A stretch of 64,000 bases of DNA from Giardia intestinalis. Its lineage: Eukaryota. The stretch is taken from NCBI GenBank assembly GCA_000002435.2, contig CM018793.1, one strand, 5' to 3'. Every line of letters begins with the position of its first letter. The first letter of the stretch is position 1. Positions 59,113 to 60,141 of the stretch are shown here, one piece after another. Position numbers and translations under genes: made by a program. The notes below the pieces were generated by a model. That model saw only the letters and a list, made by a program, of their open reading frames with translations. It made no database searches and had not been told where the DNA came from.

Positions 59113-60141
59113 ATGGCGCTGCTCTCTGCGAAGGGCCCGGGCTACGTCGAGATGGACCTCGTCTACGTCAAGGACGGGGGCAGGGAGGAGAAGTACTTCG
59201 CGGCGGTCGAGGCGTTCTCGCGGCTCTGCTTCGTGCGGCAGCTCCCGGACCGGAAGGCGGCGAACCTCGTCCCGGTCGTCGACGAGATGCTCACGCACTT
59301 CAAGGCGAAGAGCGTCCGGGCGGACATGGAGTTCTCGGCGTTCGAGATCCTCAACCTCTTCGAGCGGCGGAGGGTCAAGGTCGACCTCGTGCCCTTCGAG
59401 GTCAGGGACTACTCGCGCCTCGCCACGATCAACCGCTTCTGCCGGTCCCTGCGCCACTACCGGATGAGCGGCGTCAAGCCGGGGGACATCGAGAAGCACC
59501 ACAACCGGGAGAAGCCGGACCACTACTACCCGCACAAGTGCACGGCGGACGTCACGTACGAGGAGAACGTCGCGGTGATGAACGCGAAGCACCGGAAGGG
59601 GATCCTGCCGCTCCGGGGCGGGCCCAGGGCAGACGCGGGCCAGACGGTCCACGTGCGGCTCCTCAAGGACGGGAAGTTCGACAAGGAGCGGCCGAAGTGG
59701 TCCCGGGCGCGGTTCCGGGTGCTCGGGGTCTTCCAGGGCCGCTACGCACTGTGCCGGGAGGGCGACAAGAGCGGCAACGTCATCCTCCGGCGCTTCAACG
59801 AGGTCGCCCCGGGGAGCAAGACGCACACGTACGCGGACGACCACGTCGAGGAGAGCAACCTCTACGTCGTCAAGCGGATCGAGGAGTGCACGGACCGGAA
59901 GAGCAACCCGGTCAGGACGCTCGCGGAGGCGAACAAGATGGACTGCTGGTACCGCGTGCGGATGCTCGACGACAGCCAGGTCTGGGTGACCGCGAACCAG
60001 GTCCGCTTCCAGTCGAACGAGCCGACGGCGGCGGAGCGGCGCTTCTTCGGGGAGAAGGCGGCCGACAAGCTCACCGTCATGCGCGCGACGAAGGAGGAGC
60101 TCGCTGCGAGCAGGAGGAAGTTCCCAGTAAATAAAAAATGA
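59113..60141 (+). CDS. Retroviral-type (rve) integrase-like protein with a DDN catalytic triad and a C-terminal chromo/SH3-like tail.
   Basis: Core layout VEMDLVYV...YFAAVEAFSRL...VRADMEFS...TINRFCRSLRHY parallels the rve family (W.vDfT...YllvviDhfSR...tDNG.EF...vERfNRtLk). The first two Asp are present, and Asn sits where the catalytic Glu normally is. The stop overlaps the next gene's start (ATGA). Confidence 0.5.
   Translation: MALLSAKGPGYVEMDLVYVKDGGREEKYFAAVEAFSRLCFVRQLPDRKAANLVPVVDEMLTHFKAKSVRADMEFSAFEILNLFERRRVKVDLVPFEVRDYSRLATINRFCRSLRHYRMSGVKPGDIEKHHNREKPDHYYPHKCTADVTYEENVAVMNAKHRKGILPLRGGPRADAGQTVHVRLLKDGKFDKERPKWSRARFRVLGVFQGRYALCREGDKSGNVILRRFNEVAPGSKTHTYADDHVEESNLYVVKRIEECTDRKSNPVRTLAEANKMDCWYRVRMLDDSQVWVTANQVRFQSNEPTAAERRFFGEKAADKLTVMRATKEELAASRRKFPVNKK

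Follow-up and report, generated by a model that had tools for sequence, protein, structure and literature searches.

A putative Polinton-type integrase of Giardia intestinalis with asparagine in place of the catalytic glutamate

The open reading frame (ORF) at positions 59113 to 60141, plus strand, of a 64,000-nt stretch of Giardia intestinalis DNA (GenBank assembly GCA_000002435.2, contig CM018793.1; the whole stretch is hereafter the window) encodes a protein of 342 amino acids (aa) that is almost certainly a homologue of the rve-type integrases and has asparagine at the position of the catalytic glutamate. By exact look-up it is GL50803_34151 of Giardia intestinalis WB (XP_001707477, KAE8305696), annotated as a "hypothetical protein". 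The explanation that we favour on balance is that this ORF would encode the integrase of a Polinton-type (polintovirus-like) element endogenous to G. intestinalis, a unit of about 19.5 kb that would be present at this locus in at least two diverged tandem copies. The Asn would have been maintained by selection, and would be common to the Giardia-lineage copies, to their nearest metagenomic relative and to Hexamita inflata.

An earlier note, made from the sequence alone, had proposed an integrase of the rve/Polinton type with a particular layout of motifs. Those motifs are present in the ORF (YVEMD15, AFSRL, RAD71MEF and ATIN107RFCRSL), and the family assignment is borne out by the protein's relatives. 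The single protein does match Pfam PF00665, as the note had suggested checking (E = 5.9e-4, residues 10–65 only), with a score of 20.5 bits that falls below the gathering score of 32.6. When the PDB was searched by sequence, the protein and a Giardia-only profile gave chance-level matches except for a weak similarity to the KOW-like part of ribosomal protein S4e. The Giardia family is small, comprising six clusters among 5.8 billion proteins at 90, 86, 84, 71, 50 and 50% identity, the one at 84% being a frameshifted copy of 218 aa. A HMMER scan of 1.84 billion representatives with the profile of the seven-sequence alignment of this family returned 31 proteins, out of which a clade alignment of 29 sequences was made. 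Pfam rve is matched by 23 of the 29 (best E = 2.5e-15) and Chromo by three. Profile-profile alignment with hhalign joins the Giardia family to 20 of the non-Giardia members of the clade at 99.6% probability and E = 1.6e-24, and the clade profile in turn matches 130 solved integrases in the PDB, among them those of feline immunodeficiency virus (FIV), maedi-visna virus (MVV), prototype foamy virus (PFV), human T-lymphotropic virus, Ty3 and human immunodeficiency virus (HIV). FIV integrase is the best match (E = 4e-14), with MVV and PFV among the next and Ty3 and HIV lower. Neither phage records, searched by tblastn, nor viral contigs, scanned with the family alignment, yielded a match.

Three alignments agree that Asn stands at the position of the catalytic Glu. 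The earlier note had read this by eye and allowed for an error of one residue; its alignment was correct, because the profile alignments and the distance of 36 residues from D71 to N107, which is the canonical D(35)E spacing, both place it there. In the profile-profile alignment D15, D71 and N107 fall on the catalytic D, D and E/D of the 20 relatives, and the third-position column of the clade alignment coincides with the catalytic Glu in the FIV integrase alignments shown. The codons are GAC at 59155–59157 (D15), GAC at 59323–59325 (D71) and AAC at 59431–59433 (N107). The two Asp residues and their spacing are those of the D,D(35)E triad, but no copy has anything other than Asn at position 107, which stays unchanged across about 24 variants (seven in the family alignment, those at loci L011 and L012, and 14 more from a 149-member cluster). 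The earlier note had proposed looking for intact DDE versions in other copies; there is none among the Giardia-lineage integrase sequences examined. D15 and D71 are invariant in every sequence, and the third position among 24 other relatives is E in seven, D in 13 and N in four.

A further lineage-specific feature is found two residues before the first Asp. Gln occupies this position in 17 of the 21 alignable relatives (three of the 24 could not be aligned there), and Glu (E13, codon 59149–59151) occupies it in all Giardia copies and in Hexamita. This change from Gln to Glu may or may not be compensatory for N107. Another candidate for a compensating acid specific to the DDN form, D99 in the loop before N107, was rejected, as Asp is found there in 12 of the 24 relatives, with D, E or N in the triad.

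The earlier note had also raised the possibility of a fossil, and one can imagine that the gene is the decaying relic of an old insertion in which Asn is one of several inactivating mutations. Such a relic would be in keeping with the non-canonical triad, the sub-threshold direct Pfam hit and a local element without a polymerase. However, all full-length variants seen, about 20, keep an uninterrupted ORF of 342 aa, and among 14 further sequences of the 149-member cluster 12 are exactly 342 aa long, one is truncated (284 aa) and one frameshifted (218 aa). The ratio of nonsynonymous to synonymous substitution rates (dN/dS) is 0.047 when the gene is compared with an 86%-identical copy and 0.18 when it is compared with a paralogous one, values that are rough because dS is saturated or depressed by codon bias. 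N107 is invariant although synonymous sites are saturated. The integrase is 91% and 99.4% identical between element variants whose adjacent capsid proteins are 54% and 50% identical, and the sole gene of the element conserved to a like degree is that of the ATPase (dN/dS 0.016–0.09). The G+C content at third codon positions (GC3) is 0.97 in the integrase, compared with 0.47–0.57 in the host genes of the window and a genome mean of 0.52 (range 0.26–0.99); within the element it is 0.85–0.89 in the ATPase gene, 0.90 in the 181-aa ORF (55917–56462) and 0.51 in the capsid gene, whose variable middle has 0.28–0.32. Integrase and ATPase are the element genes of highest GC3 in other lineages too, where the genes rank alike. 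The integrase gene is very probably under purifying selection and hence functional, its Asn is an inherited, selected trait of the lineage and not a recent inactivating mutation, and we regard the decaying relic as extremely improbable. Because of the GC3 bias, long spurious ORFs run through the integrase gene in other frames (58978–59844, minus strand, and 59538–60134, plus strand).

The genes around the integrase (Table 1) keep a constant order at all loci recovered: the 488-aa ORF on the minus strand, the ATPase gene, ORFs of 129 aa and of 181–199 aa, a protein of 870–1000 aa, the integrase, a protein of 770–850 aa and then, both on the minus strand, the 200–276-aa ORF and a RING gene. The 872-aa protein encoded upstream of the integrase is a double-jelly-roll major capsid protein. 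Among viral models its Foldseek matches are a protein of Tetraselmis viridis virus S1 (TVS1) at the top and adomavirus LO7 proteins, and further matches are capsid proteins of virophages, ascovirus, African swine fever virus and mavirus. Its conserved parts (residues 1–340 and 700–872) flank a hypervariable helical insert of about 350 aa, which is missing from the 505-aa version in a sister lineage (L005) with a 50%-identical integrase. The capsid gene falls into 38 clusters at 41–96% identity, a diversity far above that of the integrase. The ATPase, of the A32/FtsK packaging type, scores 25.5 bits against Pfam Pox_A32 (cut-off 22.8) over its P-loop part only, and is 29–30% identical, with E down to 6e-35, to the ATPase on a polymerase-bearing metagenomic contig (L010). 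The 773-aa protein has conserved N- and C-terminal parts, the latter rich in Cys and His, around an acidic insert of about 450 aa that is missing from the 319-aa version of the sister lineage. There were no Pfam domains in the 824-, 488-, 148- and 129-aa ORFs. In the remaining element ORFs scanned, Pfam recognised no adenain-like protease and nothing else informative; the proteins of 488, 148 and 276 aa are candidates for the minor (penton) capsid protein and the maturation protease.

This combination points to the Polintons (Mavericks). The likeness consists of an element of 15–20 kb with a double-jelly-roll capsid protein and an A32-type ATPase, of an integrase built like the Polinton c-integrases, including the mavirus type (an rve core, then an SH3-like segment and a C-terminal chromodomain), of profile-search relatives that match Pfam rve and Chromo, and of a protein-primed polymerase in the related loci L010 and L013 and as a fragment in L005. 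The unit in the window has the rve-type integrase, in its DDN variant, the capsid protein and the ATPase; the polymerase, of which only a putative remnant is seen, and terminal inverted repeats are lacking. The Giardia integrase differs from those of Polintons in its Asn, in its missing N-terminal domain and in the Glu two residues before the first Asp, and the element differs in having no inverted terminal repeats that we could find and no adenain-like protease by Pfam. Polinton-like viruses (PLVs), a group that includes TVS1 (PMC4642659), resemble the element in having a capsid and ATPase module without a detectable maturation protease, but with one exception they lack rve integrases (PMC4642659). 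Chromoviral (Ty3/gypsy) and retroviral integrases (Ty3 integrase 7q5b, PFV integrase 3l2q, FIV integrase 4pa1) share the D,D(35)E spacing, and the chromoviral ones the C-terminal chromodomain; in contrast, they belong to reverse-transcribing elements, they carry an N-terminal domain of the HHCC type, and their third catalytic residue is Glu. That the integrase belongs to a Polinton-type virus-like element is highly likely.

The borders of the unit are marked by a direct repeat of an 18-nt motif (Table 1), which has only two copies in the window, both in the same orientation, where 0.01 chance matches are expected. The tandem period is 19.3–19.7 kb, and a second copy of the left-hand genes, read on a Logan contig that runs past the end of the window (L002, 11400–17540), is 67–76% identical at the DNA level. 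Short-read contigs carrying the integrase gene are never longer than about 19 kb, and all of them begin at window position 52602 except one, which begins at 52667. The terminal inverted repeats for which the earlier note had suggested a search are not found flanking the unit in the window, and none that is convincing was found in the Hexamita locus L013.

A polymerase is missing from the unit as it stands, since none of its ORFs shows a polymerase motif or matches a Pfam polymerase family. A short distance to the left of the border, a sequence resembling the Exo II motif of protein-primed DNA polymerases is surrounded by stop codons and GC-rich non-coding sequence. It matches the Giardia polymerase of Yutin et al. 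(2015) with E = 0.003 by tblastn and phi29 polymerase with E = 0.019, in a search space of 4.2 kb, and we tentatively regard it as a decayed protein-primed polymerase. In the sister lineage, 1.7 kb downstream of the integrase and convergent with it, lies a C-terminal polymerase fragment (YYTDTDS...KKAY) that resembles the Giardia polymerase in the supplement of Yutin et al. 2015 (PMC4642659), according to which such a polymerase exists in at least one Giardia isolate. The polymerase would accordingly have stood beside the integrase in the sister lineage and have decayed to a remnant in the window copy. Besides the integrase and the ATPase, the ancestral element would have encoded a polymerase and a capsid protein of the double-jelly-roll kind, and so would have been a Polinton.

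More distant loci show that the DDN form is found together with polymerases. The closest non-Giardia integrase (P0132, a full ORF at 188–1195 of L010) is of the form D...D...N, and its contig, 12 kb long, carries a polymerase of Pfam family DNA_pol_B_2 and the ATPase mentioned above; a homologue search with this polymerase returned the query itself alone. The diplomonad Hexamita inflata has three near-identical DDN integrases without the N-terminal domain on three contigs (L013, L014 and L015), and two of the three loci, L013 among them, have a polymerase gene. These copies are 90–96% identical in DNA sequence over about 6.5 kb, with the same start of similarity and unrelated left flanks, as expected for independent insertions. 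Comparison of the copies gave no definable right end. One of them, L013, lacks a 7.3-kb segment with an 806-aa gene, an HNH endonuclease gene and two ORFs. The Hexamita elements also have GCTCACGGGCACGGC-type tandem repeats downstream of the start of similarity, and their genes need genetic code 6. In a rough neighbour-joining tree Giardia groups with L010, with Hexamita nearby, and the other two N forms sit inside D-type groups. The DDN triad appears compatible with mobility. Of the possibilities left by the earlier note an atypical active site fits best, given DDN in the nearest relatives at polymerase loci, its multiple copies in Hexamita and a clade that has E, D or N at the third position. 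On L012, a metagenomic contig that is Giardia-like, part of the ATPase region occurs a second time in inverted orientation (322–1835), some 6 kb upstream of the intact version at 7865–9400.

The C-terminal half of the protein agrees with the earlier note, which had compared it to chromodomain or SH3-like integrase C-termini. AlphaFold2 (AF2) on the seven-sequence alignment gave a C-terminal domain with a predicted local distance difference test score (pLDDT) of about 88, which has the Chromo fold of a three-stranded sheet packed on a helix; Pfam Chromo gave no match to the integrase at E ≤ 1. Aligned by eye, this domain seems to keep only the first of the three HP1-type aromatic-cage residues. 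The SH3-like segment ahead of it has a motif common to the relatives (Table 1), with strands at residues 200–226 predicted at pLDDT 62–73, and it is this part that has the weak similarity to the KOW/SH3-like part of S4e. The catalytic core (residues 1–110) was modelled at a pLDDT of only 25–45, with secondary structure in the order beta-beta-beta-alpha-alpha-alpha, and no fold match was made for it. An N-terminal domain of about 65 aa that the relatives possess is missing from the Giardia protein, which begins 14 residues ahead of the first Asp, with the stop codon of the capsid gene directly upstream. At the other end the stop codon TGA (60139–60141) overlaps the ATG of the next gene (60138–60140) as ATGA, as the earlier note had stated, and AATAAAAA(A)TG precedes both the integrase gene and this overlapping downstream gene.

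What the protein does is a question separate from its origin. Under the explanation that we favour, it most likely still binds the DNA of the element and, through its C-terminal domains, chromatin, and most likely still carries out at least a restricted reaction of DNA nicking or joining with D15 and D71. The third contribution would come either from N107, binding metal through a neutral side chain, or from E13, the lineage-specific residue on the strand of D15. From the sequences we would give the DDN integrase about an even chance of still being catalytically active; catalysis is slightly favoured because both Asp residues are kept, because DDN copies have multiplied in Hexamita and because the DDN enzyme SETMAR partly works. 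SETMAR (Metnase) is a domesticated Hsmar1 mariner transposase for which DNA-related functions have been reported as retained. Like the Giardia protein it is an enzyme of the RNase-H-fold DDE/D kind with Asn in place of the third carboxylate and under selection. Unlike it, SETMAR is of the Tc1/mariner type and a single host gene fused to a SET domain, whereas the Giardia gene is of the rve type, lies inside a conserved multi-gene, multi-copy virus-like block and has DDN counterparts in mobile-looking relatives.

Several points weigh against this explanation. Substitutions of the catalytic Glu abolish the activity of retroviral integrases, and the DDN triad of SETMAR has been linked to the loss of full transposition. 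The low confidence of the AF2 core bears on the predicted geometry of the triad and of E13. The strong conservation fits a non-catalytic role equally well, and dS is saturated or distorted by codon bias. A border motif in direct orientation only, with no inverted repeats, looks unlike the outcome of classical rve-mediated insertion; for want of a polymerase the local copy is incapable of autonomous replication; the Hexamita copies could have been multiplied by other means; and the organisms of loci L001, L005–L009 and L012 are assigned by similarity and synteny only.

Part of this evidence leads to a different explanation, to which we give a clearly smaller though appreciable chance: that the integrase has lost catalysis and is retained in some other capacity, such as chromatin tethering through its SH3- and chromodomain-like parts or a role as a component of the virion or its assembly, while integration and the gain of copies would come about through host recombination, for example homologous recombination that makes tandem arrays. 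Asn in place of a metal-binding carboxylate, the absence of the relatives' N-terminal domain, the SETMAR precedent and the tandem units with direct border repeats would all fit a dead enzyme, as would the place of the gene within the ATPase–capsid block, overlapping the next gene. The low dS of the integrase between paralogous copies also suggests recombination between copies. However, a purely structural role would not need D15 and D71, which are invariant everywhere, DDN is found in multi-copy Hexamita elements at independent insertion sites, and D, E and N interchange within the clade, with N forms inside ordinary D-type groups.

Alternatively, the whole element may be a domesticated virus co-opted by Giardia, as variable-surface particles or in antiviral defence, with the integrase serving the host like SETMAR or Gin. 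The polymerase is decayed or absent beside the conserved block in all G. intestinalis-type copies examined, and all other ORFs remain uninterrupted, with purifying selection acting on them across lineages that have diverged. GL50803_16693, encoded within the element, is a "hypothetical" protein detected by proteomics and reported as up-regulated on host contact (PMC4751611), and integrase and ATPase genes use the host's preferred codons. On the other hand, the element is multi-copy with highly diverged paralogues and no single orthologous locus, a protein-primed polymerase is present in at least one Giardia isolate, and the integrase has no host-derived fusion partner. We consider domestication of the whole element rather improbable, and prefer the integrase of an endogenous Polinton-type element.

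Table 1. Features of the integrase gene and of the surrounding unit, in positions of the window.
Feature	Position	Strand	Remarks
Putative remnant of a protein-primed DNA polymerase, Exo II motif VHFHSLNYDGAFIL	43438–43479	-	just left of the border motif
18-nt motif GGGATATAGGGGTATATA, left border copy of the direct repeat	43963–43980	+	
Left part of the unit	44672–51561		RING, 824-aa and 1005-aa genes; diverged second copy past the end of the window
RING-finger gene	44672–45361	-	
824-aa Cys-rich protein with hydrophobic segment	46068–48542	+	
1005-aa coiled-coil, possibly fibre-like protein	48544–51561	-	
GL50803_16693, element protein, 488 aa	53077–54543	-	no Pfam hit; seen by proteomics (PMC4751611)
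A32/FtsK-type packaging ATPase	54472–55500	+	Walker A GVTGSGKT, Walker B LLAIDD
Two small basic/charged ORFs, 129 aa and 181 aa	55507–56462	+	between ATPase and capsid genes, kept in all copies
Double-jelly-roll major capsid protein GL50803_16690, 872 aa	56479–59097	+	
Integrase-like gene GL50803_34151, 342 aa	59113–60141	+	D15/D71/N107 rve core, SH3-like segment, chromodomain-like C-terminus; no N-terminal domain
rve (RNase-H-like) catalytic core, residues 1–125	59113–59487	+	placed by profile-profile alignment, alignment to PDB integrases and codons
SH3-like beta segment, residues ~176–231	59638–59805	+	motif G-x-x-V-x-V-R...F-K...W-S...Y/F common to relatives
Chromodomain-like C-terminal domain, residues ~250–310	59860–60042	+	
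GL50803_25075, 773 aa	60138–62459	+	always immediately 3' of the integrase
Conserved ORF of 200–276 aa	62585–63415	-	a protein-primed DNA polymerase fragment comes next in the sister lineage
18-nt border motif, second copy	63469–63486	+	19,506 bp from the first, same strand

The window as a whole is a segment of Giardia chromosome, with a Rad3 helicase, MsrB and an ankyrin protein among the neighbours. A single ORF of 6966 aa (125–21025) takes up its first third; neither half has a Pfam domain at E ≤ 0.01. This ORF, together with a paper on nimavirus integrases, had prompted the idea of a nimavirus-like element, which was dropped as the window is G. intestinalis WB. Between the last host gene and the unit (41435–43960) the GC content is 0.59–0.64 and there are no convincing genes; the RefSeq protein accessions jump here from XP_0017067xx to XP_0017074xx, which may reflect a contig break in the 2007 assembly. 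Just past the second border motif (63500–63850) lie G-rich low-complexity repeats, GGGCGGGGCAGG-like, with a GC content of about 0.7. A hairpin at 52160–52233, with 31-nt arms that are 87% complementary and a 12-nt loop, is apparently non-coding and lies between a 323-aa and the 148-aa ORF, and the C-terminal half of the 323-aa ORF resembles translated non-coding DNA.

Giardia appears as unnamed leaves in the polymerase and ATPase trees of Yutin et al. 2015 (PMC4642659). The ATPase in that tree (GI 253746051) was considered as a possible counterpart of the one in the window and rejected, as it is a different protein. In the searchable literature we found no description of the window element, its capsid protein or the DDN integrase; beyond the tree leaves there are only passing remarks on Giardia and Polintons. 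To our knowledge, RNA viruses and a few retrotransposons were the only elements of this kind known from Giardia before. Genes annotated as "hypothetical" would here form a capsid-encoding, DNA virus-like element with intact genes, diverged tandem copies and a hypervariable capsid insert. The capsid gene GL50803_16690 is also a target of the polymerase chain reaction used for typing assemblages A and B (PMC3429382), which is of practical relevance given the several copies and high variability of this locus.

A bolder reading of the same sequences, which we hold to be unlikely, is that diplomonad Polinton-type viruses use a working integrase with a rebuilt active site (Asn in place of the Glu on helix alpha-4, and the acidic residue E13), and that the Giardia elements are systems of virus-like particles, live or co-opted, whose capsid surface is hypervariable.

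For rve integrases the D,D(35)E triad is regarded as obligatory. A DDN form kept by selection, among relatives in which E, D and N alternate at this position, would therefore let one see in nature how far integration depends on the triad, and the pair of E13 and N107 would offer a concrete mutational target for that question.

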